64,000 nucleotides of DNA from Gemmatimonadota bacterium. GTDB taxonomy: Bacteria > Gemmatimonadota > Gemmatimonadetes > Palauibacterales > Palauibacteraceae. Positions 24,062-62,710 of the stretch are shown here, piece after piece. Within the stretch, counting starts at the first letter, position 1; the number at the start of each line of letters is the position of its first letter. Position numbers and translations under genes: made by a program. Below the pieces are notes generated by a model that was given only the letters and a program-made list of their open reading frames with translations, was not told where the DNA came from and did no database searches. The stretch covers positions 3,912,541-3,976,540 of the forward strand of contig OY762926.1 of assembly GCA_963666735.1 (NCBI GenBank), in the 5' to 3' direction.

Positions 24062-25567
24062 TGTCAAACCGCAATAGAAATGTCCGGGGTTAGAGCGCAG
24101 TAGAAATGTCCTCCCCCGGCGGTTCGGTTCTGCCCCGCTCCGGGGCCGGTTCGGGGGAGCGGGGCGGTTCCTTCTCGTTGGATATCGCTTCTCGCTCGCG
24201 GCGGAGGTCTCGGCGCGCGACGGCCTGCTGGACGGAGGCTTGGAAGTGCTTGCGCCACGGGTGGTCCGGAGCTGGCTTCGGGGGCGCGGGCCTCGGCTTC
24301 GCCGGCTTGGCGGGCGCGGGAGGGGCCGGGGCCCGGCGCGCGGGTTCGAGCTCCAGATAGCGCTCGCCGAGGCGAAAGCGGGTCTGGCCGCCGAGGCGGC
24401 GCTCGACGATGATCTCGTCTCCGGGGGCGATGCCGGCGGCCTCGTTCTCCGGGATCTGCCAGTGGCGGTTCCGGAAGCGGATCGTGAAGTCGCGGGCCAC
24501 GACGCGGGTCTCCGTCTCGGCGAAGAGCGCCTCGAGGTCCACGCCGTCCGGGAGCGGGCGGTGCGCGTCGCGGGGGTCGGCGGGCTCGACGGCGAAGCGT
24601 TCGTTCCAGAACGGAACCCAGTAGTCCTGCAGGAAGCGGTTGGCCCCCTCCAGCGTGGCGATCCCCTCCACCCGCATCTCCCTGACCAGCCGATCCTGCG
24701 CGGTGCCGAAGCTCCGCTCGACCCGGCCCTTGGCCTGCGGGGAGCCCGCGAGGATCACCTCGACCCCCAACTCGCCCAACCCCCGGGCGATGATCGTGTC
24801 CGTGCGCTCCTCCTTCTTCGACAGCCACTGCCCGAAGTGTCCGGCGTGGTCGGTGTACACCGCCACCGGGCGGCCGTGGCGGCGCAGGTAGCCGATGATC
24901 GCCCGCCGGTTCTCCGCCCCGTCGTCGCGCGCCGCGAAGCGGGCCCATCATCAGCCGGCTCGTCGCGTCGTCGTGGATCGAGATCAGCACCTGTCCTCCC
25001 GCCGCCCGCTCCTCCAGCCACGGATGCACCGAGCTGTCCCACTGCCCCAGCTCGCCCAGCGCCGCCCGCCTCGGACGCCGGCGGCGGTGCTTCGCGCGCT
25101 TGCGGCGACGCTCCCACAGCCCGGCCTCCAGCATCCAGCACCGCAGCGTCTCCGCGCTCAGACGCAGCCCGAAGCGTCTTTCCAGGTGTTCCGCAAGCAG
25201 CGTCGGCCCGAAGTCCCGGTACAGCGGATCCCTCGCAACCTCCAGCGCCCGCTCCCGATCTTCCGCGCGCAGCGCCCGGTTCGACCGCCGTCCCCGCAGG
25301 CCGTGTACCGCCGCCGCATCGCCCTCCGCCTCGAACCTCCGGCGCAACCGGCGAAAATGCCGCCGAGTCACGCCGATCCGCTCCGCTCCCGCAGCGACCG
25401 TCAGCACTCCCTCGCTCACCTGTCTCAGCACCGAGATGCGATCCCGCTCCCTCAGACTCAAGTCCATCCGCTCCTCTCCCGGATCCCGTTCCGCCGTTGA
25501 CCGAACATGGACCGTAAGAGGACATTTCTACTTGGCTAAGGGGGGACATTTCTACTTTGGTACGACA
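24062..25567. mobile_element. insertion sequence, ISNCY family (IS1202 group), 1506 bp with imperfect terminal inverted repeats of about 24 bp (TGTC...GGACATTTCTA) and an internal second copy of GAGGACATTTCTACT
   Basis: The left end tgtcaaaccgcaatagaaatgtcc matches the reverse complement of the right end ggacatttctactttggtacgaca at 19 of 24 positions. It encodes a transposase with the DFGPT..ETLR.WM..GLW...GEL.Q.D.S.H.W...IDDATS..AVYTDHAGHF signature. Confidence 0.75.
24090..25467 (-). pseudogene. ISNCY/IS1202-group DDE transposase, split by a +1 frameshift at a GGG run near 24935
   Basis: The N-terminal HTH part lies in track ORF 24064..25467 (up to ...ISIHDDATSRLMMG) and the C-terminal catalytic part in track ORF 24090..24866 (ARFAARDDGAENRRAIIGYLRRHGRPVAVYTDHAGHFGQW...). 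Removing one G from ATGGGCCCGC restores a single frame of about 458 aa. Confidence 0.75.
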
Positions 25568-27173: not shown

Positions 27174-27986
27174 TCAATGCCCGCGGGCGGGGAGCCACGG
27201 GATCCCGGGGCCGGAATTCCATTCGCCGCCGTAGCGCACCCCCGTCAGGTAGAGTCCGCCGGGCGGGGCGGGGAAGACGGCCCGAGTCCCGGCCTCTCCC
27301 GCCAACAGTCGCTCGAAGTCCTCGAACGGTCGGCGCCCCGCGGCGATCTCCACGGAAGTCCCCACCAGGTAGCGCACCATGTGGTGGAGGAAGCGGTCGG
27401 CGACGATCTCGAAGAAGAGGAAGGGAGGACGATCGAAGCACCAGGCGGCGCTCGCGACGCGGCATCGCGTCCCCCGCCCGGGCTGCCCGGCGCGGGCGAA
27501 CCGGTCGAACGACCGTTCCCCGGGGATGGCCGCCGCCAGCCGGGCGAGCGCGTCGCGGTCGAGCGGCCGCCGCGGGATCCAGGCGCGGTCGCGCAGGAAC
27601 GGCCGCCTCCGGCCGCCCTCCGCGATCACGTATCGGTAACGGCGCCCCTCGGCGTCGAAGCGCGGATGGAAATCGGCCGCCGCGGCCCTCACCTTCCGAA
27701 CGGCGACGTCGTCGGGAAGGGTGGCCCCGAGCGCCCGGGCCAGTGCCTCCGGGCTCCAGGCGGGGGGCGGGCCGAACGCGATCTCCTGCGCCGTCGCGTG
27801 AACCCCCGCGTCGGTGCGGCCGGCGAGGTCGACTCGGACAGGCCCATCGAAGAGTTTTCCGAGCGCTTCCTCCACCTCGCGCTGGACGGTGCGCACTCCG
27901 GGCTGTAGTTGGGATCCGTGGAACGAGGTCCCATCGTACTCGGTCGTGGCCCGGAAACGGGCCGGCGGGGCCGTGGAATCCGACAT
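27174..27986 (-). CDS. truA: tRNA pseudouridine(38-40) synthase
   Basis: TEYDGTSFHGSQ and RTDAGVHA motifs. Confidence 0.85.
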   Translation of the reverse strand: MSDSTAPPARFRATTEYDGTSFHGSQLQPGVRTVQREVEEALGKLFDGPVRVDLAGRTDAGVHATAQEIAFGPPPAWSPEALARALGATLPDDVAVRKVRAAAADFHPRFDAEGRRYRYVIAEGGRRRPFLRDRAWIPRRPLDRDALARLAAAIPGERSFDRFARAGQPGRGTRCRVASAAWCFDRPPFLFFEIVADRFLHHMVRYLVGTSVEIAAGRRPFEDFERLLAGEAGTRAVFPAPPGGLYLTGVRYGGEWNSGPGIPWLPARGH

Positions 27987-28052
27987 GCGCGAAGATTAGC
28001 GACTTCCGGGCGGCGAGGGGAAACCGGCGAGGGGAAACCAGGAGGCATCGAG

Positions 28053-29066
28053 GTGACGAACACGATCCGGCGCGTCCTCTCCGGGGAAACCCTGGATGCG
28101 GCGACCGCCGAAGCCACGTTCGACCGCTTCATGAGCGGCGACGCCACGCAGGCGGAGATGGCCGCGCTCCTTGCGGCGCTCAGGATGCGCGGCGCAACGC
28201 CGGCGGAGGTGGCCGGGGGGGTCCGCGCGCTGCGGAAGGCCATGATCCCGCTCGCCCTCGACGACGATCGCATCATCGACACCTGCGGCACGGGCGGCGG
28301 CACGCTGACCACGTTCAACATCTCGACCGCCGCCGCCGTCGTCGCCGCGGCCGGCGGCGTCCGCATCGCGAAACACGGAAACCGTTCGTTCACCTCCAAG
28401 TGCGGCAGCGCCGACGTGCTCGAGATGCTCGGCATCCCCATCGAGCTTCCTCTGGAAGATGAGAAGCGGATGTTCGAGGCGACCGGGTTCGTGTTCATGT
28501 TCGCGCCGGCCCACCACCCGGCCATGCGGCACGTGGGCCCGGTCCGCGCCGCGCTCGGCGTGACCACGATCATGAACCTGCTCGGACCGCTCGCGAACCC
28601 GGCGGGCGTGCGCCGGCAGATCGTCGGCGTCGCCCACCGGGATGTTCAGCGCCTCGTCGCCGACGCCCTCCTCGAACTCGGTCACGTGCGCGCGCTCGTC
28701 GTCCACGGCGAGCCCGGCATGGACGAACTGAGTCCGCTCGGCCCGACCCGGGTCTTCCGCGTCGAGAACGGGACGCTGTTCGAATTCGAGGTTGCGCCGT
28801 CCGACTTCGGCTGGCCGGAATACGCGCCCGCCGATCTGGCCGGAGGCGAGCCGGAGGAGAACGCGGAGCGGGTCCGGCGCGTCATCGGCGGCGGCGAAGC
28901 CGGGGCCGGCCGCGCGGCCGTCGTGCTCAACGCGGCGGCCGCCTTCTGGGCCGCCGGCGCCGTGGACACCCTGGCCGCCGGCGTCGCCGCCGCCGAGCAA
29001 TCCATCGATTCGGGTGCCGCAGAAGCGCAACTTCAATCCCTGCAATCGTTTCAACCGAAAACGTGA
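28053..29066 (+). CDS. trpD: anthranilate phosphoribosyltransferase
   Basis: GTGGG and KHGNRS motifs; start chosen at GTG 28053, which lies 7 nt after an AGGAGG site at 28040..28045. The track ORF starts at 27909 inside truA. Confidence 0.9.
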   Translation: MTNTIRRVLSGETLDAATAEATFDRFMSGDATQAEMAALLAALRMRGATPAEVAGGVRALRKAMIPLALDDDRIIDTCGTGGGTLTTFNISTAAAVVAAAGGVRIAKHGNRSFTSKCGSADVLEMLGIPIELPLEDEKRMFEATGFVFMFAPAHHPAMRHVGPVRAALGVTTIMNLLGPLANPAGVRRQIVGVAHRDVQRLVADALLELGHVRALVVHGEPGMDELSPLGPTRVFRVENGTLFEFEVAPSDFGWPEYAPADLAGGEPEENAERVRRVIGGGEAGAGRAAVVLNAAAAFWAAGAVDTLAAGVAAAEQSIDSGAAEAQLQSLQSFQPKT

Positions 29067-29212
29067 CTCTTGTTGTGCCGGCGCGTGTGCCGGCGACGGG
29101 AACCTCCGCCCCGACGGTTTTTGTGGGAGGTGGGTGGCCGTCGGGACGGGAACTCTCGGGGAGTCGAGAGCGGTCCTCCGTCAGTTGCGGTGAGGTGTCT
29201 CGTTCCGGGCGT

Positions 29213-29821
29213 TCAGTAGCGCCGGATCACTCCGATCACCACGCCCTGGACCGTGACCTGCGATGGGTGCAGGTATAACGGCGTGAGCGCCGGATTCGCG
29301 GGCTGAAGCCGAACCTGCCCGTGCTCCAGGTAGATCTTCTTCATGGTGGCGTTCTCGCCGTCGACGAGCGCGATCACCATCTCGCCGTTGTGCGCCGTCT
29401 CCCGCGACTGGACGATGACGTAGTCTCCGTCGCGGATCTGTTCGTCGATCATCGAGTCGCCGCGGACCCGCAGCACGTAGTGTTCGCTCAGGGAACCGGA
29501 GATCATGTCTTCGGGAACGGAGACCGTCTCCTGCTCCTCGATGACCTCTATGGGCTGGCCGGCCGCCACGTTGCCGTACAGCCGCAGTTCGACCGCGGCG
29601 ACCTGGAGTTTTCCTTCCACCAGTTCGACCGACCGGCTTTCATTGTAGTTTTTTCGTATATACCCCTTCGCCTGCAGGTTCTCGAGATGTTCGTGGACCG
29701 TCGCGAGCGAGCGGTAGCCGAACTCCTCCGCGATCTCCTCGAAGCTCGGGGAATACCCGCGGAACCGTATGAAGCCCTCGAGGAAGTCCAGCATCTCGCG
29801 CTGTCGCTTCGTTAGCGCCAT
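29213..29821 (-). CDS. lexA: LexA repressor (SOS regulon)
   Basis: N-terminal winged HTH (MALTKRQREMLDFL), Ala-Gly cleavage site (VAAGQP), S24 peptidase Ser/Lys (GDSM ... MKK). Confidence 0.9.
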   Translation of the reverse strand: MALTKRQREMLDFLEGFIRFRGYSPSFEEIAEEFGYRSLATVHEHLENLQAKGYIRKNYNESRSVELVEGKLQVAAVELRLYGNVAAGQPIEVIEEQETVSVPEDMISGSLSEHYVLRVRGDSMIDEQIRDGDYVIVQSRETAHNGEMVIALVDGENATMKKIYLEHGQVRLQPANPALTPLYLHPSQVTVQGVVIGVIRRY

Positions 29822-29881
29822 CGTTTCTCCCTCCGCTCGTGCTTCCGCGCTTGCGCGGTCCGCCGCAGACCCTCGCCGCAG

Positions 29882-29925
29882 ACCGAATATTGTCCGAAGC
29901 TACCCGAATAAGGACCGAATTGCAA
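29882..29925. promoter_or_regulatory. cluster of four about 11-bp-spaced CCGAA(T/G) repeats in the divergent lexA/trpC intergenic region; candidate operator
   Basis: accGAATAttgtCCGAAGctacCCGAATAaggaCCGAATTg; in lexA orientation this reads as (A/T)TTCGG iterated with about 11-bp periodicity. No E. coli-type CTGT-N8-ACAG or GAAC-N4-GTTC box was found. Confidence 0.3.
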
Positions 29926-29996
29926 GCTTCCGCACGAACCGTCGCGACGGCCGGGGGTTTTGCGGCGGAATACCGACGGTCGCAGCTTGGCGCCCC

Positions 29997-30818
29997 ATGA
30001 CAGCTCACACGATTCTCGAAGAGATCCTCGCGGCGAAGCGGGAGGAGGTCGCGCGACTCCAGTTGTTCCGGAGCGCGATTCGCGGCCAGGCGGAGGAAGC
30101 CGCGCCCCCGCGCGGTTTCGAGGCGTCTCTGCGCCGGCCCGGGGAAGTCTCCGTGGTCGCGGAGTTCAAGCGCCGCTCTCCGTCCGCCGGCGACATCAAC
30201 CCCTACGCCCAGGCGGCGGGCGTGGCGAGCGTGTACGCCTCCGCGGGGGCGGCCGCGATCTCGGTCCTCACGGATGAACGCCATTTCGGCGGCTCGCTGG
30301 ACGATCTCAGGTCGGCGAAGGACGCGGTGGGGGTTCCCGTCCTCCGCAAGGATTTCACGCTGGATCCCGTCCAGTTGTACGAGGCGCGGGCCGCGGGCGC
30401 GGATGCGGTCCTGCTCATCGTGCGCGCGCTCGGCGACGCCCGGCTGCGGGAACTGCTGGAACTCGCGGCCGACATCGGCCTCGCGGCGCTCGTGGAGGCG
30501 CACGACGAGGAAGAGATGGAGCGGGCGCTCGAAGCCGGGGCCCGAATCATCGGCGTGAACGCGCGCGATCTCGCGTCCTTCAAGGTGGACCTCGAGCGCT
30601 CGCTGAGCCTGATCGCGGAGCTTCCGGCCGACGTCGTGGCCGTGGCGGAGAGCGGGATCCGGTCCGCGGAGGACGCGGCGGCGGCGGGCTCCGCGGGAGC
30701 CGACGCGGTTCTGGTCGGCGGCTGGCTGATGGCGGGCGATCCCTCGGCGGGGGTGGAGGCGCTCGTCGGCCATCCCAAGCGCCCCCGGAGCGCTCCGATG
30801 CCCCGGGGCACGCCGTGA
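29997..30818 (+). CDS. trpC: indole-3-glycerol phosphate synthase
   Basis: MTAHTILEEILAAKREEV start with EFKRRSPS motif; start trimmed to the ATG at 29997. Confidence 0.9.
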   Translation: MTAHTILEEILAAKREEVARLQLFRSAIRGQAEEAAPPRGFEASLRRPGEVSVVAEFKRRSPSAGDINPYAQAAGVASVYASAGAAAISVLTDERHFGGSLDDLRSAKDAVGVPVLRKDFTLDPVQLYEARAAGADAVLLIVRALGDARLRELLELAADIGLAALVEAHDEEEMERALEAGARIIGVNARDLASFKVDLERSLSLIAELPADVVAVAESGIRSAEDAAAAGSAGADAVLVGGWLMAGDPSAGVEALVGHPKRPRSAPMPRGTP

Positions 30819-31455
30819 ACGAGGTTCGGGTGAAGATCTGCGGCCTCAGGGACCCGCGGCACGCCGCCGCGGCTTCCCGCGCGGGCGCCGACTACATCGG
30901 CGTGGTGTTCGCGGGCCGCGTGCGGGAGGTCACTGCCGAGGAGGCCGGCGCGGTCGTGGCCGCCTTCGAGGGCGGCACGCGGGCCGTGGGCGTGTTCCTT
31001 GACGCGAGCCCGGCGGAGATCCTCCGGACCCGGGACGCTGCGGGGCTCCACGTCGCCCAGCTCGCCGGCGCGGAGCCGCCCGAAGTCTGCGATCGCCTGC
31101 GGGACGAGGGGTTGGGCGTGTGGAAGGGCCTCCGGCCCACGTCGAGCGCCGCGCTGGTCCGCGCGTGGGACGAGTACCGCGAGGCGGCGGACGCGATCCT
31201 CGTGGAGGGGTTCTCGCCGCGCGGACCCGGAGGTACCGGGACCGCCTTCCCGTACGAGTGGCTGTCGGAACTCGCGCGGGATGGGTGTGCCCTCGCGCTC
31301 GCGGGCGGACTGGAGGCGGCCACCGTGGCGCGCGCGATCCGTGACGCGCGTCCCGACATCGTCGATGTCTCCTCGGGCGTCGAGCGGGCGCCCGGCGTGA
31401 AGTCTCTCGAGCGGGTCCTCGAGTTCCTGGCCGCGGTGCGTCGCGGTCTCCCGGC

Positions 31456-31459
<4 letters not shown>
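30815..31459 (+). CDS. trpF: phosphoribosylanthranilate isomerase
   Basis: VKICGL...GADYIGVVF motif; GTG start overlapping the trpC stop. Confidence 0.85.
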
Positions 31460-32679
<1,220 letters not shown>

Positions 32680-32681
32680 CC

Positions 32682-33227
32682 ATGGCCTTCATCGACTATC
32701 CGGATCCGGCGGGAATCCCCGAGGCGGACCGCGTCCCGGACGACGACAACATCATCCGCATTCACGGCGTCCACAGTCGCGTCATCCGGCTCCACTACGA
32801 TCTCTACCGCGAACTCATGTACGGGCCCGGCCCCCTTTCCCGGATTCAGAGGGAGATGATCGCGGTCACCGTGTCGGGACTCAACGCCTGCCGTTACTGA
32901 ATTGTCCATCACGGAGAGGGTCTCCGTCGTCTGCTCGAAGTCGCCGGCGCCGGCCGTTCCAGCGAGGAGAACGAACGCCTGATCGCCGCCCTCGCGACGG
33001 ACCATGAGGTGGCCGAGGTGGACGATGCCGACCGGGCGATGCTCGACTATGCCGCGCGACTCACGCTCGCGCCCGGCGGCGTGAACGAAGCCGCCGTCGA
33101 CAGCTTGAAGGCGCACGGTTTCGATGATCGCGCGATCCACGATATCTGCGCGGTCACGGCCTACTATGCGTTCGCGAACCGGATCGCCGACGGACTCGGC
33201 GTCGAACTCGAAGACGAGGGAGGCTGA
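32682..33227 (+). CDS. carboxymuconolactone decarboxylase / AhpD-like (peroxidase-related) family protein with an in-frame TGA (32898..32900) at the second Cys of the CxxC...H redox motif; candidate selenoprotein, or a nonsense pseudogene
   Basis: The track splits it into 32682..32900 and 33009..33227, but 32901..33008 is open and in frame. The joined 181-aa product reads ...SGLNACRY[TGA]IVHHGEG...AMLDYAARLTLAPGGVNEAAVDSLKAHGFDDRAIHDICAVTAYYAFANRIADGLGV. A hairpin ACGGAG-aggg-CTCCGT begins 11 nt after the TGA. Confidence 0.55.
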
Positions 33228-33232
33228 CGGAA

Positions 33233-33922
33233 TTGGCCATGCTTCCGCCGACACCGCCGCCGCGCGGACCGGGCGCGCCGGGCGCCTCGACCGTTCCGGC
33301 GAATCTCGACCATCTGCTGCTGGGGACCGCCGATCTGGAGGAAGGGGTCGCGTGGGTGGCCGGCCGGCTCGGCGCCGAAGCCGCGTTCGGCGGGCGTCAC
33401 GAGAACCTCGGCACCGCGAACTACCTCCTCTCGCTCGGGGGCGACATCTATCTTGAGATCCTCGGTCCCGACCCTGAAGCGCCTCCCCGGGAAGCCCCGC
33501 TCCCGTTCGGGATCGAAGAACTCGACGAGCCCAGGCTCGTCACGTGGGCAGCCCGCGGAACGGACCTCGAGGCGCTCGTCGCGCGGGCATCGGGCCGGGG
33601 CGTGCCGCTCGGGCCGGTGCGGCCCGGCTCCCGGCTGCGGCCGGACGGCACTGAACTGCGCTGGGATATCACGGCCTTCGCCGCGTTCCTCCACGACGGT
33701 CTCGTACCTTTTTTCATCGATTGGGGAACGACGCCGCACCCGGCCCGCGCCACGCCGGCGGGGGGGCGGCTGATCTCGTTCCGGGCCGAACACCCGGATC
33801 CCCCGGCGGTACGATCCACCCTCGAGGCGCTGGATTTGGCGCTCGAAGTGGACGAGGGGCCGGAGCCCGCCCTCGTGGCGCGGATTCGCACCCTGGGCGG
33901 TGACGAAGTGGCGCTGCGCTAA
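33233..33922 (+). CDS. VOC (glyoxalase-like) family protein
   Basis: Glyoxalase-like domain pattern (HLLLGTADLEEGVAW ... YLEILGPDP). Confidence 0.55.
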   Translation: MAMLPPTPPPRGPGAPGASTVPANLDHLLLGTADLEEGVAWVAGRLGAEAAFGGRHENLGTANYLLSLGGDIYLEILGPDPEAPPREAPLPFGIEELDEPRLVTWAARGTDLEALVARASGRGVPLGPVRPGSRLRPDGTELRWDITAFAAFLHDGLVPFFIDWGTTPHPARATPAGGRLISFRAEHPDPPAVRSTLEALDLALEVDEGPEPALVARIRTLGGDEVALR

Positions 33923-33927
33923 CAGAC

Positions 33928-35283
33928 ATGTCTTCAAGTTTCGAGGCGATATTCATGGGATTCACGGGATTCATGCGATTCATGAACGACACAGATTGGG
34001 CAGACCAGGCAGATCAGGCATTTCTGGCACATCGGACTCGGCGGGCGACCGGCTTCGCCGCAGGCCTCCTGACGCTGGCTCTGGTCGTGGCCGGCTGCGT
34101 GGACGACCCGACGGACCCCACCGGGCCGCCGCCGGAGGAGGGCGGATCGATCACGCTGGCGGCGGCCGTCGCCGAGAGTGGGCGGCACGGTCCGGAGGGG
34201 ATCGAAGTCGCGCGCGGGTATCGTCTCGCCGTCGAGATCCTCAACGAGAACGGCGGGATTCGCGGCCGGCCGGTGCAACTGGAGATTCGTGACGACGGGA
34301 GCGACGCCCAGGCGAGCGCGCGCCTGTACGCCGAACTCATCGCGTCCGGCACCGTCGACGCCCTGTTGGGACCGTTCAGCAGCCCGATCACGGAAGCCGT
34401 CCTCGCCGTCACCGAGGCCGCGGGCGTGCCGATGGTGGCGCCCATGGCGGCGGCGCCCGCGATCTGGTCCGGGCGGCAGCGGCAATGGAGCGTGCAGTTG
34501 CTGACTCCGGGACCGACCTATCTGCGGGGCTCCGTGGAGGTGTCCGTGTTCGGCGGCGCGCGGACCGTAGCCATCGCGTACGAGGACACATCGTTTCCCG
34601 CATCGGTGATCGAGGGCGTGCGCGAAGCGGTCCGGCGTCATGGGCTGGAGGTCGTGCTGGACCGATCCTATGATGTCGGAACGGCCGACCACGAGGCGAT
34701 CGCCGCCGCGGCGCGGGACGCCGGCGCGGACCTCTTCATCGGCGGGGGCTACGTCGCCGACGCCGTCGGCTTCGCCACCGCGGCGCCCGCCGTGGGCTAC
34801 CGGCCGGTTCTCATGAGTCTGCTCGTCGGGCCCGGGCAGCCGCAGTTCGCGCAAGCGGTGGGTGCGGCCGCGCGGTGCGTCGCCGGCAACGCGCCGTGGC
34901 ACCCGGCCGTCGGGACGTCCGGGTTCATCGCGGACAACGAGACCTTCGTCCGCCGTTACGAGGCGGCGCACGGAGAGACGCCGGGCTACCACGCGGCGGG
35001 AGGCTTCGCGGCGGTGGAACTCATGGCGGAAGGGTTCGATCAAACGACCCCCGGGGCGGGCGACCCCGATCGCGCCGCGCTGCGCGACTTCCTGTTCTCG
35101 GCCCGGACCGAGACCATCGCGGGTCCGTACGAGGTCGTTCCCATCGGCGACGCGGAGGCCGGAGCCCAGCGCGGGCTCAAGGGGCTGCAGGTCCAGTGGC
35201 AGGACGACGGCGACGGCGGCCTCGCCCTCCGGATCGTTCACCCCTGGGCCGACGCCGACGCGACCCCCTGCTACATGCGCTGA
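33928..35283 (+). CDS. periplasmic substrate-binding protein of a branched-chain amino acid-type ABC transporter (PBP1/LivK-like); no permease or ATPase genes adjacent
   Basis: Signal/lipoprotein N-terminus; Leu/Ile/Val-binding protein family pattern (YRLAVEILNENGGIRGRPVQLEIRDD...LLGPFSS). Confidence 0.75.
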   Translation: MSSSFEAIFMGFTGFMRFMNDTDWADQADQAFLAHRTRRATGFAAGLLTLALVVAGCVDDPTDPTGPPPEEGGSITLAAAVAESGRHGPEGIEVARGYRLAVEILNENGGIRGRPVQLEIRDDGSDAQASARLYAELIASGTVDALLGPFSSPITEAVLAVTEAAGVPMVAPMAAAPAIWSGRQRQWSVQLLTPGPTYLRGSVEVSVFGGARTVAIAYEDTSFPASVIEGVREAVRRHGLEVVLDRSYDVGTADHEAIAAAARDAGADLFIGGGYVADAVGFATAAPAVGYRPVLMSLLVGPGQPQFAQAVGAAARCVAGNAPWHPAVGTSGFIADNETFVRRYEAAHGETPGYHAAGGFAAVELMAEGFDQTTPGAGDPDRAALRDFLFSARTETIAGPYEVVPIGDAEAGAQRGLKGLQVQWQDDGDGGLALRIVHPWADADATPCYMR

Positions 35284-35304
35284 CTACATGCGCTGATCGG
35301 GCCC

Positions 35305-35334
35305 GGTCGCGTCCGGTAGTACCTGGACGCGACC
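35305..35334. terminator. perfect 10-bp-stem hairpin between convergent genes
   Basis: GGTCGCGTCC ggtagtacct GGACGCGACC. Confidence 0.4.
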
Positions 35335-35356
35335 AAACCCGTCGCTTCTACGCCCG

Positions 35357-38300
35357 CTACCTCCCGCGGATCCCGGCGGCGGCGCCGGCGGCGTTCTCCT
35401 CCGCCGGCCGCTCCCTCTCGAGCGGTCGCGCCTCGGGGTAGATCTCGTCGAGCGTCATCCCGTCATACAGCCGTCCGTCCTTCATCACATAGTGGATGTC
35501 GACGGTGCTGCGCAGTTCGTCGAGCGGGTTCGAGTTGAGGATGACGATGTCGGCGAATTTCCCCTCCTCGATGCTTCCGAGCTCATCCCCGAACCCGATC
35601 GCCTCGGCGCCGAGGATCGTCGCGGCCCTCAGCATGTCGAAGTTCGACGCGCCGCCGGCCGCCATCGCCCACAACTCCCAGTGGTAGCCGACGCCCTGGA
35701 TCTGCCCGTGGCTCCCCACGGCCATGCGGGCGTCCGCCTCGAGCATCTTCTTCACGAACTCGCCGTGACGCGGGAAGACATACTCTTCCTCCAGGAACCA
35801 GCCGCCTTCTCCGGGACTCCCCCCGGCGCCGGGCCCGCGCCGCCGCGCCCGCGCGTCGATGTTCGCCTTGGGCACGAACGTCGCGAGCTTCTCGTCCCCG
35901 AGCACGTCCTCGTGCGTGTAGAAGTAGTTCTCGCCGAACGGGCCGCCGTACGAGACGAGCAGGGTCGGGCTGTTCGTCGTCTCCGACGTCTTGAACAGTT
36001 CGACCACGTCCGAGTAGATGGGCGCGATCGGGAGGTTGTGCTCGATGCCGGGGTATCCGTCGATCGCATGCGTGATGTCGATCTTGTAGTCGAGCCCGCC
36101 CTCCGTCGTGGGCATGAGTTCGAGGTCGCGCGCCGCCTGGATGATCCACTGACGCTGCTGGCGGTTGCCCGTCATGTACATCTTGAGCGTCTTCGTGTCG
36201 AAGTACTCCGCGTAGCGCCGCAGGATGGTCTTCGCGTGGTCCGCGTCGCGGAGGTTCTCGCCCGCGAACACGCCGGGTCCCGTCGAATAGATGCGCGGCC
36301 CGGTCATGCCGCCGGTCCGCACCCGGTCCGTGTAGCTGAGGATGTCGGTCGTCGCGGTCTGCGGATCGCGCGTCGTGGTGACGCCGTAGGAGAGCGTCGC
36401 GAGGTACTGCCACACCTCCTCCGGATGAACCTCCGGCACGAGCCACTGCGCGTGATAGTGGGTGTCGATGAAGCCGGGGACGAGCGTCTTTCCGCTCACG
36501 TCGATGACGGTGGCGCTGTCCGGGACCTCGACCGAGTCGGCGGGGCCCACGGCGACGATGCGGTTGTCCGTCACGAGTACCACGCCGTCCTCGATGATGC
36601 GCGGTTTCATGGCGGGTTCCGGCGGCTCCGCGGGGGTGTCCTCCTCCTCCGCGGCTTCGGCCGCGCCCTCCGCGCCCTCCGCAGCTTCGGCCGGCGTCTC
36701 CGCCGGATCGTCCGGGGCCGCCCCCGCCGTGTCCGCCGGCGCCCCCGCCGTATCCGCCGGCGTGTCCTCCGGGACCTCGGTCATGGTGATGATCCGCCCG
36801 CCGGTGAGCGCCACCGTGCCGCGCGGGATGTCCCGGGGCAGCTGCGCCTCGATCCGGCGCTCGTGCGCCTCGTACGTCTCCGTCGTGTCGGCGAGGACCT
36901 CCTCGTCGCCCGCCCGCACCGCGGCCGATTTCGCGGCCACCTCCTCCGCCGCCTGTCGGATCGAGTCGGCGCGGGCCAGCAACGAGTCCGCCTCGACTTG
37001 CACGGAGTCGGCCTGGAGTCGGGTGATCTCGTCCTCCAGCTCCTCCGGTACCTCCTCGTCGGCGTTCTCGAGGCTGTCCGCCTCGGCGCGCTTCTCCTTG
37101 AGGGTGTCGGTGACCGCCGCCGCCCTGACGCGCAGGAGGGCGCGCGCGTGGGCGGTGGCTTCCTCCTCCTCTTCCTCCGCCTCGACGCGGTCCAGGTCGT
37201 ACGTGAACAGCACGTTCCCCAGGGCCCAGTGCAGGGCGCCGCCGTCGGGCGCCCACGAGGCGAACTCACCGCCCACGTCCGTGACCTTGCGCACCGGCAC
37301 CGGGGCGTCGTCCACCCGGAACAGCGTGATCGTCGGCGGGGTGTCGCCGACTTCGGCCAGGTCCGCCACGAAGAGGTCCCGTCCGAACTGCACGAAGGCG
37401 CGGTCGCCCGCCGGCGACAGCACGATCAGGCCGGCCGGCTGCGGTCCGCCCGGCTCCGCCGGCGGGTCCGGGTCCGTGGGGTCGGGGCCCTGCCGCCAGG
37501 GGAAGACGCGTCGCGGCAGGAACTCCCACTCGTTCGGGTGCGGGTCGCCGATGCCGGCGATGCCCTGCCGCCCGCGCACGATCAGATGGCGCTTCACGTC
37601 CGTCCCGTCCCAGCGGAAGGACACCAGCCCCTCGACCGGGCTGTACGCGTAGATCCGGTCCGGATCGTCCGCCGCGAAATGGGGCACGTCGCGGAGTCCC
37701 GTGGGTGAGATGACCTCCGCCTCCGCCGGCTCGGTTCCCGCCGTCGGCACCCACACGAACTCGCCGCCGATGGGGCCGAAGAAGGCTCCGGCCGCTTCCT
37801 TGAGCTGCCGGGCGGCGCCTCGCGAGGCGACGATCCGCTCGCCGTCGGGGGACCAGGCGACGTTGTAATAGAGGGCCGCCGTGGCCGAGAGCCGGATCGG
37901 TTCGCCGCCTTCCACCGCGACCTTCATGATGTGGCCGCCGTCCGAGTCGTCCCAGGTCGTGTAGGCGATCCAGCGGCCGTCCGGCGACCACTGGGGATGG
38001 AACTCGCCCGCGTCGCCCTCGGTGAGACGCCGCGGCTCGCCGTCGGGCAGATCGCGGATCCAGAGGCGGTCGAAGGCCGTGAACACCAACTGGCCGCCGC
38101 CCGGGCCGACGACCGGACTCCGGATCTGGCTCGCCGTGACCATTGCCGTGGTGTCGATCTGGTACTCGAACTTCACCTGCGGGCCGACGTCGAGTTCGAC
38201 CTCCGCCTCGAACGGGATCTCCGTCGCCTCGCCCCCGTCCATGGGGACGTTCCAGATCTTGCCGCCATACGAGATCACGATCGCCGAACCATCCGGGAGG

Positions 38301-39229
38301 AAGGCGTAGCCCGGCATGACATCGAGAGGCGCCCGCGACTCCTGCTCGTCCCGCTGCACCGGATAGGCGAGCCAGCTCTCCTCTCCCGTCTCGAGGTCGC
38401 GCTTCCGGAGGCCCGTATCCGCGTTGTAGCGCGTGCCGTACACGAGCCAGCGGCCATCGGGCGAGATCGCCGGCCGGAACGCCGACCCGTAGCGGTTGGT
38501 CATGGTCGTCGTGGCGCCCGTCTCGCGGTCGTAGCGGTAGAGCTGGTAGAGGGGCAGCACCGCGTTGTACGTCCAGTCCCCGAAGCCCCCGGCGTACCAC
38601 ACGTAGCGCCCGTCCGGGCTGAACGCCGCGCCGATCCGCTTGAGGAAAGACGATCCCGGCAGCGGCAGGGGAGACCCGCGCTCGGCGTGGTACATCGCGA
38701 GGGACGCGACGCCGCCCAGCCCGTTCGAGCGGCTGGCCACGATGTAGACGCCGTCCGGGCTCCATTCGGGCGACAGCATGAGGCTGGACCCGCCTCCGGC
38801 CACGCGGGTCGTGTCCGTGAGGTCGAGGCGCATCTTCCACAGCGCATCGCCCCCGCTGCGGTCGGAGATGAAGGCCACCGACTCGCCGTCCGGGCTGAAG
38901 CGGGGCTGCGTCTCGTAGGCCATCCCCGTGAGCAGGGGCGACGCCTTCCCGCCCTCGATGGGCATCGTGTACAGATCTCCGAGGAGGTCGAAGACGATCG
39001 TCGTCCCGTCGGGACTCACGTCGAGCGAAATCCAGGTGCCTTCCGTCGCCGTGAAGCTCGCCGTGCGGGCACTTCGCAACGGGAGCGGCTGCCGGCCTCC
39101 GGGCCCGCCGGGGCCGATCATCACCTGGGCCGCCGCCGGCGCGGCGGCCGCCGAAGCCACGAGCGCGGCGAGCGCCGCCGCCCGCCCCATCCGTGCCAGC
39201 TTCTCGGTCCGCCTCCCGCGGGGGGTCAT
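35357..39229 (-). CDS. secreted giant PD40 (TolB-like) beta-propeller plus amidohydrolase-family protein, copy 1, with a roughly 130-aa acidic/coiled-coil insertion
   Basis: Signal peptide; repeated PD40 motifs (SPDG...VF); C-terminal amidohydrolase signature (GKTLVPGFIDTHYHAQW ... HG); the insertion is rich in E, D and A relative to copy 2. Confidence 0.75.
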   Translation of the reverse strand: MTPRGRRTEKLARMGRAAALAALVASAAAAPAAAQVMIGPGGPGGRQPLPLRSARTASFTATEGTWISLDVSPDGTTIVFDLLGDLYTMPIEGGKASPLLTGMAYETQPRFSPDGESVAFISDRSGGDALWKMRLDLTDTTRVAGGGSSLMLSPEWSPDGVYIVASRSNGLGGVASLAMYHAERGSPLPLPGSSFLKRIGAAFSPDGRYVWYAGGFGDWTYNAVLPLYQLYRYDRETGATTTMTNRYGSAFRPAISPDGRWLVYGTRYNADTGLRKRDLETGEESWLAYPVQRDEQESRAPLDVMPGYAFLPDGSAIVISYGGKIWNVPMDGGEATEIPFEAEVELDVGPQVKFEYQIDTTAMVTASQIRSPVVGPGGGQLVFTAFDRLWIRDLPDGEPRRLTEGDAGEFHPQWSPDGRWIAYTTWDDSDGGHIMKVAVEGGEPIRLSATAALYYNVAWSPDGERIVASRGAARQLKEAAGAFFGPIGGEFVWVPTAGTEPAEAEVISPTGLRDVPHFAADDPDRIYAYSPVEGLVSFRWDGTDVKRHLIVRGRQGIAGIGDPHPNEWEFLPRRVFPWRQGPDPTDPDPPAEPGGPQPAGLIVLSPAGDRAFVQFGRDLFVADLAEVGDTPPTITLFRVDDAPVPVRKVTDVGGEFASWAPDGGALHWALGNVLFTYDLDRVEAEEEEEEATAHARALLRVRAAAVTDTLKEKRAEADSLENADEEVPEELEDEITRLQADSVQVEADSLLARADSIRQAAEEVAAKSAAVRAGDEEVLADTTETYEAHERRIEAQLPRDIPRGTVALTGGRIITMTEVPEDTPADTAGAPADTAGAAPDDPAETPAEAAEGAEGAAEAAEEEDTPAEPPEPAMKPRIIEDGVVLVTDNRIVAVGPADSVEVPDSATVIDVSGKTLVPGFIDTHYHAQWLVPEVHPEEVWQYLATLSYGVTTTRDPQTATTDILSYTDRVRTGGMTGPRIYSTGPGVFAGENLRDADHAKTILRRYAEYFDTKTLKMYMTGNRQQRQWIIQAARDLELMPTTEGGLDYKIDITHAIDGYPGIEHNLPIAPIYSDVVELFKTSETTNSPTLLVSYGGPFGENYFYTHEDVLGDEKLATFVPKANIDARARRRGPGAGGSPGEGGWFLEEEYVFPRHGEFVKKMLEADARMAVGSHGQIQGVGYHWELWAMAAGGASNFDMLRAATILGAEAIGFGDELGSIEEGKFADIVILNSNPLDELRSTVDIHYVMKDGRLYDGMTLDEIYPEARPLERERPAEENAAGAAAGIRGR

Positions 39230-42200
39230 CGGTCACCTCCCGGGACTCCGGCGCCTACAGATGTCGTTACGGCGGGCGCGGTATCCCTCCACGCTTCGTT
39301 CGGGGCCGGCCGTTGTCGGGGCCACAGCTCATCGAGCGTGTCGCCATCGTAGAGTCGCCCGTTCATCATCACCTTGTCGATCGTGTTCGTGTTGCGGATG
39401 TTCGCGAGCGGGTCCGCGTCGAGGATCACGAGATCCGCGAGCTTGCCCGGTTCGATGGAGCCCAGGTCGCCGCTGAGGCCGATCGCGTCGGCCCCCATGA
39501 GCGTCGCGGCGCGCAGCGCGTCGTGCTCGTCCATGCCGCCGCTCTGGAGCGCCCACAGCTCCCAGTGATAGCCGAGTCCCTGCAACTGGCCGTGGCTGCC
39601 GACGCCGGTGTTCCCGCCGCCCTCGACGAGGTCCGCGAGCCACGCCGCGTGCTTCGGGAAGGCGTACTCCTCCTCGGCGAACCAGCCGCCCGGCCCCGGT
39701 CCGGTGAACAGCCCCAGACGCCGGGCCTTGATGTCGAGTTCCCGCTTCGGCGTGAAGTGCGTCAGCTTCTCATCGCCGAAGATGTCCCAGCGCGTGTAGA
39801 AGTAGTTCTCCGCCCACGGTCCCCCGTAGGAGACGAGGAGGGTGGGGGAGTTCACCGTACCCGACGTCGCGAACAGTTCCACGACGTCGTTGTACGCCGG
39901 AATGATCGGCATGGAGTGCTCGATCCCCGGATATCCGTCCATCGCGTGCGTCATGTTCAGGCGGTACTCGAGGCCGCCCTCGGTCGTGGGCATGAGCCCG
40001 AGTTCGCGCGCCGCCATGATGAGCCACTGCCGCTGCCGCCGGTTGCCCGACATGTACATCTTGAACGTCTTCGTGTCGTAGTACCGGCTGTACTTCCGCA
40101 GGACATCGAGCGCGTGCTCGTAGCTGCGGATGAAGTCGAACTGGAACACGCCGGGGCCCGTGTGGTAGACGCGCGGCCCCACCATCCGGCCCGCCCGCAC
40201 CATGTCCTCGTAGGAGAGCACGTCGGTGGTCGCCGTCTGCGGGTCGCGGGTCGTCGTCACCCCGTAGGCGAGGTTGGCCTGGTAGATCCAGGGCCGCGCC
40301 CAGTGGAAGTCCCACAGGTTCCACATGTGGGCGTGCGTGTCGACGAACCCGGGCACCACCGTCTTCCCGCTGATGTCGACGACCTGCGCGCCCTCGGGCA
40401 CTTCGCCCGGCCCCGCCCGCACCGAAGCGATCCGGTTGTCTGTGATCACGATGTCGGCGTTGTCCAGGATCTCGTCGCCGTTCATGGTGATCGCGCGCGC
40501 TCCGCGCAGGACCACCGTGCCGCGCGGAATGTCGCGCTCGGCCGTCACTTCGATCTGCTGTTCCGCCGGCGCGTAGGCCGTGTCGGCGAGGGCCGCGTCC
40601 AGATCGTAGGTGAACAGGGCGTTGCCCAGCGACCAGTGGATCGTGCGCCCGTCCGCCCCCCACACGGGGAATTCGGCCCCGAGTTCGTTGAGCTTCCAGG
40701 CGGGCACGCCCGCCGAGTCCGGCTTCGCGACATCGATTCGCGGGAGCGTGGCGCCGAGGTCCGGCACCGTGACCGCGTACAGGTCATCGCCGATGTGCGC
40801 CAGCGCGAGGTCGCCCCGCGGCGCCATGACGACCGACCCGGCCCCCAGTCGGAGGATGAGCTCGCGCGGCTCGTCGTGGTCGAAGGTCGGCGGCATGGGC
40901 AGGTCCGACCGGGGAGAGCGGTCGTACCGCCCGGCCCGCGACGGGACGCCGCCCGCGCCGAGGTTCGCCCGCGACGTGACCGCCAGGTGCTGCCGCCGGT
41001 CCGTGTCGTCCCAGCGGGCGGACGAGAGCGCGGTCGTCGCGATGGGCGGGATGGGCGACCCGGGCACCGCGTCGGCTCGTGCCAGACCGTAGTAGTAGAT
41101 GCGGTCCGGGTCCGAGGTGAAGTGCGGCTGCCGGCGTCCGCCCGTCGGCCCGATGCGGGTGAGTGCGCCGCCGTCCGCCGGGATCCAGACGAACTCCGAA
41201 TCCAGCCCGAATCCGATGAAGGGGTCGACGGCCTCCTGCACGTTCCGCCGCGAGGAGCGAATGGCCACGATGCGCCCGCCGTCGGGAGACCAGGCGGGTT
41301 GCTGATAGTAGGCCGGCTCCCGGGTGAGGCTCGTGCTCGCGCCGCCGTCCGCAGACACCCGGCGGATGTGTCCCTCGCCCGTGTCGTCATCCCACGTCAC
41401 GTACGCGACGGACCCTCCGTCCGGCGACCATACCGGGTGATACTCTCCCACGTCGTCGCCGGTGAGGCGGCGCGGGGTCCCGTCCGCCACGTCCGCGACG
41501 TAGAGCCGGTCCAGCGCGGTGAACGCCACGCGCGTCCCGTCCGGCGACGGCCGGGTGTTGCGGATCTGCTTCACGACGAAGGTCGGGGTGTCCTCGATCG
41601 GATACTCGAAATCGACTTCCGGGCCGACCGCGATCTCCGCGTTGACCGTGAACGGGATCTCGGCCGGCTCGCTCCCGTCGACGGGCACGCGCCAGATCCC
41701 GCCCCCGTAAGAGACGACGATCGCCTCCGAGTCGGGCGTGAACGAGTAGCCCGGCAGCACGTCCATGGTGGCCGTCGATTCCTGGTCGTCCCGCTGCACC
41801 GGGTAGGCGAGCCACCGTTCCTCGCCCGAGTCGAGTTCGCGCAGCCGGATCCCCGTCTCGGTGTCCTCGCGGGTGGCGTAGGCGAGCCATTCCCCGTCGG
41901 GCGAGAGGGCGGGGCGGAACGCGGAGCCGTACCGGCTCGTCATCGGCGTCCGGGTTCCCGTCCGGCGGTCGTAGACCCAGAGCTGGTACTGCGGGAAGAT
42001 CGCGTTGTACTGCCAGGTGCCGAGGCGTTGCGCGTACCAGATGTAGCGCCCCTCGGCGTCCACCGCCGCGCCCAGCATGCGTTGCGCCCCGCTCCCGCCG
42101 ACCATCTCGAGGCCGGTGCCGCCGTCCACGTGATAGAGCCAGAGCTTCTCGAGGCCGAAGAACGCCCGCGAGCGCGAGACGACGACGTACTTGCCGTCCG

Positions 42201-42642
42201 GCATCCACTCCGGCGAGAGGAAGACGCTCCCGATCCCCTTGCTGAGCTGCGTCGGCTCGCCCCCCTCCGCGTCCATGAGCCACACGTTCTCGTCGCCGCT
42301 GCGGTCCGAGACGAAGACGATCCGCGACCCGTCCGGACTGAAGCGCGGCTGCATGTCGTGCGGCAGGCCGCTCGTGAGCCGCGTCGCCTCGCCGCCCGCG
42401 ATGGGCATCCGGTAGAGGTCGCCCAGGAGGTCGAAGACGAGCGTCTGGCCGTCCGGACTCACATCGAGCGAGATCCAGGTCCCCTCGTTCGTCGTGAAGC
42501 GGGCCCAGCGTGCCGGTTCGAGGGGAAGACCCCGGTCGGGATCCTTCTTCTCCTCCTCCTGGGCCGCGACGGGCAGGGGTGCGAGCAGCGGTGCGAGCAG
42601 CAGCAGAGCGGCTGCCCAGCGGCGACAATGGAACGACAGCAT
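39226..42642 (-). CDS. secreted PD40 beta-propeller plus amidohydrolase-family protein, copy 2 (tandem paralog)
   Basis: Same architecture (GKTVVPGFVDTHAHMW); start trimmed to the ATG at 42642 (MLSFHCRRWAAALLLLAPLL signal peptide); its stop overlaps the start of copy 1 (ATGA). Confidence 0.75.
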   Translation of the reverse strand: MLSFHCRRWAAALLLLAPLLAPLPVAAQEEEKKDPDRGLPLEPARWARFTTNEGTWISLDVSPDGQTLVFDLLGDLYRMPIAGGEATRLTSGLPHDMQPRFSPDGSRIVFVSDRSGDENVWLMDAEGGEPTQLSKGIGSVFLSPEWMPDGKYVVVSRSRAFFGLEKLWLYHVDGGTGLEMVGGSGAQRMLGAAVDAEGRYIWYAQRLGTWQYNAIFPQYQLWVYDRRTGTRTPMTSRYGSAFRPALSPDGEWLAYATREDTETGIRLRELDSGEERWLAYPVQRDDQESTATMDVLPGYSFTPDSEAIVVSYGGGIWRVPVDGSEPAEIPFTVNAEIAVGPEVDFEYPIEDTPTFVVKQIRNTRPSPDGTRVAFTALDRLYVADVADGTPRRLTGDDVGEYHPVWSPDGGSVAYVTWDDDTGEGHIRRVSADGGASTSLTREPAYYQQPAWSPDGGRIVAIRSSRRNVQEAVDPFIGFGLDSEFVWIPADGGALTRIGPTGGRRQPHFTSDPDRIYYYGLARADAVPGSPIPPIATTALSSARWDDTDRRQHLAVTSRANLGAGGVPSRAGRYDRSPRSDLPMPPTFDHDEPRELILRLGAGSVVMAPRGDLALAHIGDDLYAVTVPDLGATLPRIDVAKPDSAGVPAWKLNELGAEFPVWGADGRTIHWSLGNALFTYDLDAALADTAYAPAEQQIEVTAERDIPRGTVVLRGARAITMNGDEILDNADIVITDNRIASVRAGPGEVPEGAQVVDISGKTVVPGFVDTHAHMWNLWDFHWARPWIYQANLAYGVTTTRDPQTATTDVLSYEDMVRAGRMVGPRVYHTGPGVFQFDFIRSYEHALDVLRKYSRYYDTKTFKMYMSGNRRQRQWLIMAARELGLMPTTEGGLEYRLNMTHAMDGYPGIEHSMPIIPAYNDVVELFATSGTVNSPTLLVSYGGPWAENYFYTRWDIFGDEKLTHFTPKRELDIKARRLGLFTGPGPGGWFAEEEYAFPKHAAWLADLVEGGGNTGVGSHGQLQGLGYHWELWALQSGGMDEHDALRAATLMGADAIGLSGDLGSIEPGKLADLVILDADPLANIRNTNTIDKVMMNGRLYDGDTLDELWPRQRPAPNEAWRDTAPAVTTSVGAGVPGGDR

Positions 42643-42787
42643 GCATCGACTCCGTTCGACGGGATTGCGGTTTGGACCCTTATGCTGTGAATGCTGTGGA
42701 CCGGATGATCGTACGTACGAGCGGTATAGTAGTGTCGGCTCGTAATCGCCACCAACCGTAATCGTCACCAACAAAAGGAAACGATTC

Positions 42788-43696
42788 TTGGGCAACCATC
42801 GGGACATCGCGCTGATCTCCGTCTCCATCGACCTCGGGGCCGGGCGCCGGGGCGTGGACATGGGCCCCTCCGCCCTTCGCATCGCAGGAATCAGCCGGGA
42901 GATCGAAGCCGTCGGGCACCGGGTCACCGAACTCGGCACGCTGACCGCCGGCGGGCTGGAGACCAGCGAGGCCGGCGAGAGCGAGCTGCGTTTTCTGGAT
43001 GAGGTCGCGGACGTCGCCGAGCGGACCCGGGCCCTGGTCCGCTCGGGTCTTGACCGGGGCTGCACGCCGCTCGTCCTGGGTGGCGACCACTCGCTCTCGA
43101 TCGGCTCCGTGGCGGCGGTCGCCGACCACTACCGCCCGCAGGGGGCGTCCATCGGCCTCATCTGGGTCGACGCCCACGCCGACATGAACCGTCCCCACAC
43201 CACGCCCAGCGGCAACATCCACGGGATGTCGCTTGCCGTCCTGCTGGGACACGGGGAGCCGAGGCTGACGCTCGGCCGGGCAAGCGTCCGCCCGGAGAAC
43301 GCGAGCGTCCTCGGCGCGCGGTCGCTGGATGCCGGCGAGAAGCGGCTCATCCGCGAGCTGGGCCTCCGCGTGTTCACGATGTCCGAGATCGACGAACGCG
43401 GCGTGGCGCCGTGCATGGACGAGGCGCTGGAGCGCGCCAATGCCGGGACTCGCGGCTACCACCTCTCCTTCGACCTCGACGCGCTCGATCCGCGGATCGC
43501 TCCGGGCGTGGGGACCCCGGTTCGCGGGGGACTGACCTACAGGGAAGGGCACCTCGTGTGCGAGAAGGCGTCCCGCTCCGGCCGGCTCCTCAGCCTGGAG
43601 CTCGTCGAACTCAACCCGGTCCTCGACGACCGCAACCAGACGGCCGAGTTGGGCGTCGGCCTCGTCGCCTCCGCGCTCGGCGCCACCATCCTGTAG
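42788..43696 (+). CDS. arginase/agmatinase-family ureohydrolase (arginase-like)
   Basis: GGDHSLSIG, DAHADMN and SGNIHGM manganese-binding motifs. Confidence 0.8.
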   Translation: MGNHRDIALISVSIDLGAGRRGVDMGPSALRIAGISREIEAVGHRVTELGTLTAGGLETSEAGESELRFLDEVADVAERTRALVRSGLDRGCTPLVLGGDHSLSIGSVAAVADHYRPQGASIGLIWVDAHADMNRPHTTPSGNIHGMSLAVLLGHGEPRLTLGRASVRPENASVLGARSLDAGEKRLIRELGLRVFTMSEIDERGVAPCMDEALERANAGTRGYHLSFDLDALDPRIAPGVGTPVRGGLTYREGHLVCEKASRSGRLLSLELVELNPVLDDRNQTAELGVGLVASALGATIL

Positions 43697-52606: not shown

Positions 52607-52762
52607 CGGTGCTGCGTCCCGCACCCGCACTTCGTCCACACACGATGCATACTCAATTCGGGCGAACCGGCCGCTCGCATGGGCCGCACTCCCCGGTAGC
52701 CTCGATCTCCCGCTATCTTTCCAGCGCTTCCAGATTGAAGACACCAAGGCAGGAGGAATCTC

Positions 52763-53998: not shown

Positions 53999-54042
53999 AC
54001 GGCGACGGAGGGAAACCGCCTTGATTCGGGCGGTTGACACGG

Positions 54043-61649: not shown

Positions 61650-62706
<1,057 letters not shown>

Positions 62707-62710
<4 letters not shown>

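Follow-up and report, generated by a model that had tools for sequence, protein, structure and literature searches.

A probable selenocysteine-encoding AhpD-like gene in a Gemmatimonadota genome

The DNA analysed here, hereafter the window, is the whole 64,000-nt stretch of contig OY762926.1 from a Gemmatimonadota bacterium, and all coordinates are window positions. The gene at 32682..33227 very probably encodes a selenocysteine (Sec)-containing AhpD-like protein, in which an in-frame UGA is recoded with the aid of a functional selenocysteine insertion sequence (SECIS) located just 3′ of it (Table 1). This assignment rests on the unity of the gene, the conservation of the TGA, the translation of the codons downstream of it, a hairpin that is specific to the TGA-containing forms, and family membership. 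A sequence-only reading of the window had previously singled out the gene as a candidate selenoprotein.

The forward-strand frame contains a sole internal stop, the TGA at 32898-32900, and ends with a second TGA at 33225-33227; translation through the internal stop gives ...SGLNACRY*IVHHGEGLRRLL..., so that both the sequence and its translation agree with the earlier description of a frame that is open save for one TGA in the context NACRY-[TGA]-IVHH. The ATG at 32682 follows the end of trpB at 32679 with a gap of 2 nt, again as first described. The peptide that surrounds the TGA, ...QR-E58-MIAVTVSGLNA-C70-R-Y-[TGA73]-I-V-H-H77-GEGLRRLL..., exhibits the spacing E58-x11-C70-x2-U73-x3-H77 (U, Sec), which is that of the AhpD core pattern E-x11-C-x-x-C-x3-H, and in alignments of homologs H77 is invariant and H76 nearly invariant. 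Profile searches in which Cys took the place of the TGA give matches to the Pfam carboxymuconolactone decarboxylase (CMD) family PF02627 (1.6e-10, 41.2 bits against a cutoff of 23), to NCBIfam TIGR01926 (117.2 bits, curated cutoff 81.8) and, over residues 50-83, TIGR00778 ahpD_dom (43.5 bits against a cutoff of 27.8). The best PDB relatives, 2pfx, 3c1l (Mlr4105), 2prr, 6k40 and 2oyo (E-values of 5e-25 to 1e-16), align across the site as C-x-Y-C-x-x-x-H-G, and all have Cys at the TGA column. Cys also occupies this column in the database homologs P0004, P0005, P0007 and P0010 and in two Cys-type loci seen at the DNA level, L086 (TGT) and L089 (TGC), which bears out the proposal that the TGA stands in place of the second Cys of the CxxC...H motif. 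The homolog encoded in the second of these loci (P0008, L089 10001-10540, GCA_038228795.1) reads S-R-Y-C: the first, resolving Cys is lost and the one aligned with Sec is kept, pointing to a family variant with a single cysteine.

The gene is base-for-base identical, TGA included, in an independent assembly of metagenome data (L005, ERZ12815472), which also encodes an identical TrpB; an assembly or sequencing error at the TGA is excluded because this identity extends over the whole gene. A scan of the window for further pairs of open reading frames (ORFs) joined by an in-frame TGA and having coding-like GC content at third codon positions (GC3) returned off-frame artefacts only.

Conservation of the TGA and of the codons beyond it

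A scan of 185,579 species-representative genomes yielded 518 relatives, the best 80 of which were taken as the ortholog set. TGA is present at the Sec column in all 80 of these loci, which represent more than eight phyla, and in 86 of 86 segments once the window and metagenome copies are added, so that the aligned column holds TGA in the orthologs and Cys in the Cys-type homologs. The hosts comprise Gemmatimonadota, Acidobacteriota/Thermoanaerobaculia, Planctomycetota, Calditrichota, Chloroflexota, Marinimicrobia/Fidelibacterota, Zixibacteria, Eisenbacteria and a Desulfosarcina metagenome-assembled genome (MAG), among others; the nearest orthologs within the set are from Gemmatimonadota, at 89% identity and then, for Ca. 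Palauibacter, 77-78%, the ortholog at 77% being L007 on the complete chromosome NZ_OZ250143.1.

Every ortholog retains 101-119 conserved codons 3′ of the TGA. Relative to the closest relatives (L006-L009), the ratio of nonsynonymous to synonymous substitution rates (dN/dS) is 0.06-0.18 upstream of the TGA and 0.18-0.38 downstream, and since it is low on each side both halves are translated. The earlier statements that the segment after the TGA is a conserved CMD C-terminus, and that the frame is consequently one gene and not two, are thus upheld by intact codons in all orthologs, by purifying selection (dN/dS below 0.4) on both sides, and by an active site that spans the TGA.

A SECIS-type hairpin within the coding sequence

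The arms ACGGAG (32911-32916) and CTCCGT (32922-32927) enclose a 5-nt loop, AGGGT, the outer A and T of which are able to pair; the element may therefore be drawn either as a 6-bp stem with an AGGGU loop or as a 7-bp stem (32911-32917/32921-32927) with an apical GGG (32918-32920). Its calculated energy is −8.4 kcal/mol for the 17-mer and −9.0 kcal/mol with flanks. The position of this hairpin 11 nt after the TGA, its arms and its apical G residues are as the sequence-only reading had them, whereas the loop given there, 'aggg', is one nucleotide short. According to the published description of bacterial SECIS (bSECIS) elements (PMC13188914), the apical loop measures 3-9 nt and the upper stem 4-16 bp, UGA and loop lie 16-37 nt apart, the energy is −7.5 kcal/mol or lower, and one or both of the first two loop positions are G, in the form N1-G-[G/U]-N-N2 with N1 and N2 pairable. 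The window hairpin agrees with each of these: a stem of 7 bp and a loop of 3 nt (or 6 bp and 5 nt); an A-G-G-G-U loop in which A and U are N1 and N2 and in which G fills alignment columns 21-23 in 90% or more of the orthologs; a distance of 16-17 nt (32901..32916/7), which is at the lower bound; and the energy given above. The claim of a typical SECIS position and shape is thereby sustained on all four published counts of size, loop, spacing and energy. A scan of the window against Rfam returned nothing at gathering threshold, and a match to a viral frameshift element over the hairpin in a permissive Rfam scan was rejected as a chance hit.

Several observations weigh against the assignment. 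Searches of the 64-kb window with ARAGORN, Rfam and Pfam detected no selA, selB, selD or tRNA-Sec, and none was detected within 10 kb of any ortholog, in 1.33 Mb of flanking sequence. Pfam annotation of ∼40 window ORFs detected neither SelA nor SelB, the lone AIRS-domain protein being PurL; ARAGORN detected no tRNA-Sec in the window or in 87 loci; and tblastn with Escherichia coli SelD and SelA as probes gave no match in the 1.33 Mb of window and loci. The literature searched yielded no account of Sec use in Gemmatimonadota or Palauibacterales, and no mention of selenium was found in the ecogenomic description of the Palauibacterales (PMC10469786). With regard to the hairpin, −7.5 kcal/mol is reached in only 35 of 81 orthologs when the uninterrupted upper stem alone is scored, most of the others lying between −5 and −7.3; the 63-nt local fold of the window is no better than that of shuffled sequence (z = 0.86); RNAalifold returned an empty consensus structure on an alignment of 81 sequences of 45 nt; and the stem encodes the conserved residues HHG[AE]GLR, so that protein-level constraint accounts for part of its conservation.

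As selABCD genes are normally unlinked to selenoprotein genes, the absence of the machinery near the gene is expected, and on the comparative evidence it is very unlikely that the host genome lacks it. A separate observation concerns a Thermoanaerobaculia MAG, in which a 'tRNA-???' with an anticodon of two bases (gc) is called by ARAGORN on the minus strand ∼1.5 kb from the Sec-type gene (L018 3551-3622); this is probably a degenerate or mis-called tRNA.

Because the single-sequence fold does not stand out from shuffles, the case for the hairpin must rest on comparison between orthologs. In 77 of 81 distinct orthologs the same offset is occupied by a stem of 4 bp or more, most commonly ACGGRG-[C/A]GGGN-CUCCGU. 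Wholly different stems are found at the same site in L042 (GGCUG/CAGCC), L061 (UGGCCAA-GGUC-UUGGCCG) and L073 (GUCGC/GCGGC), GGU being retained in the loop of all three. When pairs are counted explicitly on alignment A4, 75.6% of cells prove to be paired, a figure that falls to 53.7% or less once the 3′ arm is shifted, and five pairs have changed on both sides, against 1.5 expected from shuffles; compensatory variants include GC, AU, GU and CG at pair 17-27, and CG and AU at pair 20-24.

Since the stem encodes the conserved H-G-[A/E]-G-L-R, codon choice there was set against codon choice for these amino acids in the remainder of the 83 genes. Arg is CGT at the stem in 67 of 79 cases (85%) and in 10% elsewhere; Leu is CTC in 88% against 33%, Gly is GGA or GGG in 95% against 40%, and Ala is GCG in 97% against 38%. 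In line with these biases, the 70%-GC window and the much lower-GC relative L002 are nearly identical over the ∼47 nt that cover the TGA and the hairpin, whereas most wobble positions differ outside this stretch. The two Cys forms examined as DNA (L086, TGT; L089, TGC) differ in their codons and lack a hairpin of this kind. By these comparisons, the hairpin structure is selected beyond the needs of the peptide and is specific to the UGA forms. In the spacer, 76% of orthologs use CAT for the His immediately 5′ of the stem, compared with 26% CAT for His elsewhere in the same genes, and within columns 10-15 of A4 (window 32907-32912) columns 10, 11, 13 and 14 are invariant; the UGA-stem spacer is therefore also constrained at the nucleotide level, a constraint for which hairpin pairing offers no explanation.

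Alternative readings of the TGA

The alternative that survives best, although we regard it as highly improbable, is read-through that does not involve Sec. In this case the hairpin would stimulate near-cognate decoding of UGA as Trp or Cys in the absence of the Sec machinery, for example in a lineage that had lost selABCD, and the failure to find such genes in the window or in the ortholog flanks would be in keeping with it. Against it, the hairpin has an apical loop of the SelB type, GG(G/U), at a fixed distance, and the UGA is located precisely at the catalytic Cys/Sec column. The element is moreover kept in more than 80 species, in all of which a loss of the machinery is implausible, and such a loss would favour reversion to TGC or TGT, the codons seen in the Cys forms.

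The sequence-only reading had itself named a nonsense mutation, TGC or TGT to TGA in a Cys-type gene, as the alternative to Sec. A single in-frame stop is indeed what a pseudogene of this kind would be expected to show, and gene callers report fragments of 72 and ∼105 residues, but a TGA shared by all 86 segments in more than eight phyla, intact downstream codons under purifying selection, and a hairpin held by synonymous constraint refute inactivation, which is left with a negligible probability.

Two small genes, a 72-residue N-terminal protein followed by an independently initiated C-terminal one, can likewise be given practically no credence. The notion draws on the many orthologs that have GTG, ATG or TTG one or two codons after the TGA, and on the appearance of the databases. 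Among the 120 best hits (P0001-P0120) of a search of 5.8 billion proteins, relatives are of two kinds, full-length proteins of ∼180 residues and many fragments of 103-122 residues that start one or two codons past the TGA column, as '(M)VHHGEGLRRLL'; 60 of the 120 are such C-terminal fragments, and 28 are true Cys forms. Some of the stubs carry only the NCBI name 'peroxidase'. In the window, however, the first in-frame ATG, GTG or TTG after the TGA is at 33009, 36 codons on, and a second gene therefore could not make HHGEGLRRLL, the most conserved segment. Solved homologs, without exception, have a CMD fold and an E-x11-C-x2-C-x3-H site that extend across the TGA position, and a split would sever the active site between C70 and H77.

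Genome-wide reassignment of TGA to Trp or Gly (genetic code 4 or 25), for which the W in 22 and the G in 3 of the same 120 hits at the Sec column might be cited, has a vanishingly small chance of being correct: codes 4 and 25 are excluded because TGA is an ordinary stop in these genomes, ending both trpB and the AhpD-like gene in the window as well as 52 of 83 orthologs, and homologs carry Cys, not Trp or Gly, in the catalytic CxxC. The W of P0001, the one entry checked at the DNA level, is a gene-caller artefact on short contigs because its codon is TGA, which is untranslated under table 11; the W and G entries probably stem from contigs translated under code 4 or 25. A few further entries show R, L or S at the column.

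Proposed mechanism

Recoding of the UGA as Sec would proceed as follows. The single gene specifies a predicted AhpD-like thiol/selenol oxidoreductase (TIGR01926/COG2128) in which UGA codon 73 would be recoded, the mRNA hairpin at 32911-32927 with its apical GG(G/U) loop serving as the putative SECIS. This loop is predicted to recruit SelB-GTP-Sec-tRNA(Sec) to the ribosome paused at the UGA and so to deliver Sec into the A site, the route of bacterial Sec insertion summarised in PMC9312934. The product would contain a C70-x-x-U73 selenenylsulfide redox centre, with U73 as the attacking nucleophile, C70 as the residue that resolves it to the selenenylsulfide, and E58 and H77 in the proton-relay positions of AhpD. 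These roles are modelled on the AhpD paradigm of a nucleophile, a resolving Cys and a Glu/His relay. Recycling of a peroxiredoxin or reduction of hydroperoxides is the likely role; selenium incorporation, SelB binding, enzymatic activity and the physiological substrate are all inferred.

Genomic context

Table 1. Positions of the AhpD-like gene, its predicted recoding elements and its immediate neighbours in the window.
Feature	Position	Strand	Remarks
AhpD-like gene, predicted selenoprotein (TIGR01926 'peroxidase-related enzyme', CMD fold)	32682..33227	+	181 codons, predicted Sec at codon 73
In-frame UGA, predicted to be read as Sec (U73)	32898..32900	+	Column of the second Cys of CxxC
Active-site signature E58-x11-C70-x-x-U73-x3-H77	32853..32912	+	Read off the translation
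Bacterial SECIS-type hairpin inside the coding sequence	32911..32927	+	11 nt after the UGA; 7 bp, GGG loop
trpB (PALP domain)	31456..32679	+	Directly upstream, tight co-directional cluster; ends in TGA
Glyoxalase_3-domain gene (PF13468, 1.1e-41)	33233..33922	+	Directly downstream

The AhpD-like gene is part of a co-directional cluster of trpC, trpF, trpB, ahpD-like, Glyoxalase_3 and periplasmic binding protein genes, with overlaps or gaps of no more than 12 nt, and no terminator-like site above chance was found in 29000-36000. The order trpB/ahpD-like(Sec)/Glyoxalase_3 recurs in only six related marine Gemmatimonadota loci (L006-L008, L011, L013 and L014); in L009 trpB is 2.9 kb from the AhpD-like gene. 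Clustering of neighbours over 81 loci reveals no recurrent partner beyond the trp and Glyoxalase_3 genes of Gemmatimonadota, the other ∼70 lineages placing the gene elsewhere. The trpA gene lies ∼2 kb downstream in L002 and L011, and at 46307-47299 in the window, ∼13 kb downstream. The placement of the gene inside the trp operon, as the sequence-only reading had it, thus describes a small Gemmatimonadota subclade only, and in the window itself is qualified by the distance to trpA.

The Sec-type gene and its Glyoxalase_3 partner have been inserted between trpB and trpA, and kept, in 6-7 marine Palauibacterales-like Gemmatimonadota genomes. From this conserved synteny and the tight gene spacing, it might be supposed that the pair protects or processes a readily oxidised intermediate of tryptophan synthesis (indole or a species of aminoacrylate type), or that an inefficient UGA/SECIS step in mid-operon makes expression of the downstream operon genes dependent on selenium supply; we consider either reading of the trp placement very improbable.

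The gene order over 27909-35283 is trpD, lexA (on the opposite strand), trpC, trpF, trpB, ahpD-like(Sec) and Glyoxalase_3, and the interruption of the trp genes by lexA is kept in L002. The genes that precede trpA in the window encode a periplasmic binding protein, two PD40 plus amidohydrolase proteins, an arginase and an S9 peptidase; the PD40/amidohydrolase proteins, of ∼1,280-1,290 residues, are encoded in tandem on the minus strand (35357-39229 and 39226-43065). Long high-GC3 ORFs without a Pfam match at E ≤ 1e-5 are located at 40-1272, 1269-2489, 24090-24866, 52763-53998 and 62679-63611, and within the window GC content is lowest over 52001-54000 (0.647, compared with ∼0.70).

A different neighbourhood surrounds the Cys-type homolog P0005 (L086 1-20543, GCA_025357945.1), which is accompanied by two pairs of extracytoplasmic function (ECF) sigma and anti-sigma factors, a second CMD-family gene, a 497-residue AhpC-TSA/Redoxin-thioredoxin protein and a pyridine-nucleotide disulfide oxidoreductase. 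This setting of oxidative-stress type contrasts with the trp context of the Sec form, and fits an oxidative-stress role for the family.

Implications

The gene implies that a Palauibacterales-like Gemmatimonadota genome decodes Sec, a trait of which no mention was found for this order. The set of 81 sequences provides a clean case of a very short SECIS (6-7 bp) that is held by synonymous-codon selection across more than eight phyla, and may be used for benchmarking SECIS predictors. Public annotation routinely truncates AhpD-like CxxU genes, and as a result of the stubs and of the spurious catalytic Trp, functional and pangenome analyses overlook or miscount the gene. The biology of the protein adds little: few marine selenoproteins are more abundant than those of the AhpD-like CxxU type.

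Comparison with known systems

The window hairpin resembles the E. coli fdhF-type SECIS and the bSECIS model in being located in the ORF just 3′ of the UGA, in having a small loop whose first two positions are G followed by G/U, and in a spacing within 16-37 nt. In both, a minimal upper stem-loop of 17 nt begins 11 nt after the UGA. Unlike the fdhF-type element, the window hairpin has a very short stem of 6-7 bp and lacks an evident lower stem or bulged U; Rfam has no model for it, and binding by SelB is a prediction.

At the protein level, 2pfx, 3c1l, 2prr, 2oyo and 6k40 ('uncharacterized peroxidase-related protein' or AhpD) are of the same length as the window protein and match it column by column over REMIAV-VS-xN-C-x-Y-C-x-x-H-G, but all are Cys forms, and they are without an assigned physiological substrate. 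Mycobacterium tuberculosis AhpD, the alkylhydroperoxidase D with a CMD fold and the site E118-x11-C130-x-x-C133-x3-H137, has its Glu, two redox residues and His at a spacing identical to that of the window protein (the TIGR00778 match), and its reactive second Cys is the counterpart of the predicted Sec. It is nevertheless only distantly related and uses Cys, the window protein belonging to the shorter TIGR01926 subfamily of ∼180 residues, and no genes for its partners (AhpC, DlaT/Lpd) are found next to the window gene.

The closest precedent is the 'AhpD-like protein' (COG2128, CxxU), described in 2005 as a new selenoprotein family from 27 sequences of Sargasso Sea metagenomes, with a predicted SECIS that has conserved apical G residues (PMC1088965). 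In the Global Ocean Sampling (GOS) survey 'AhpD-like 1' ranked fourth among the families by abundance, with 299 sequences in the Sec form and 902 Cys homologs (PMC2398784), and reviews of 2022 and 2026 list the 'AhpD-like protein, COG2128 (YciW)/TIGR01926, CxxU' (PMC9312934, PMC13188914). Together with the TIGR01926 score, these catalogue entries substantiate the earlier remark that AhpD-like proteins are a known bacterial selenoprotein family. The window gene shares with this family the profile, the CxxU motif with Sec for the second Cys, the downstream SECIS hairpin with apical G, the marine or environmental origin and the coexistence of Cys homologs, and there is no essential difference between them. 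As a member of a selenoprotein family catalogued since 2005, the gene is unsurprising to a specialist; mildly new are the host lineage, the insertion in the trp cluster and the extent of database mis-annotation. What distinguishes the window copy within the family is its Palauibacterales-like Gemmatimonadota host and its position between trpB and Glyoxalase_3, a context that is undescribed for AhpD-like selenoproteins.

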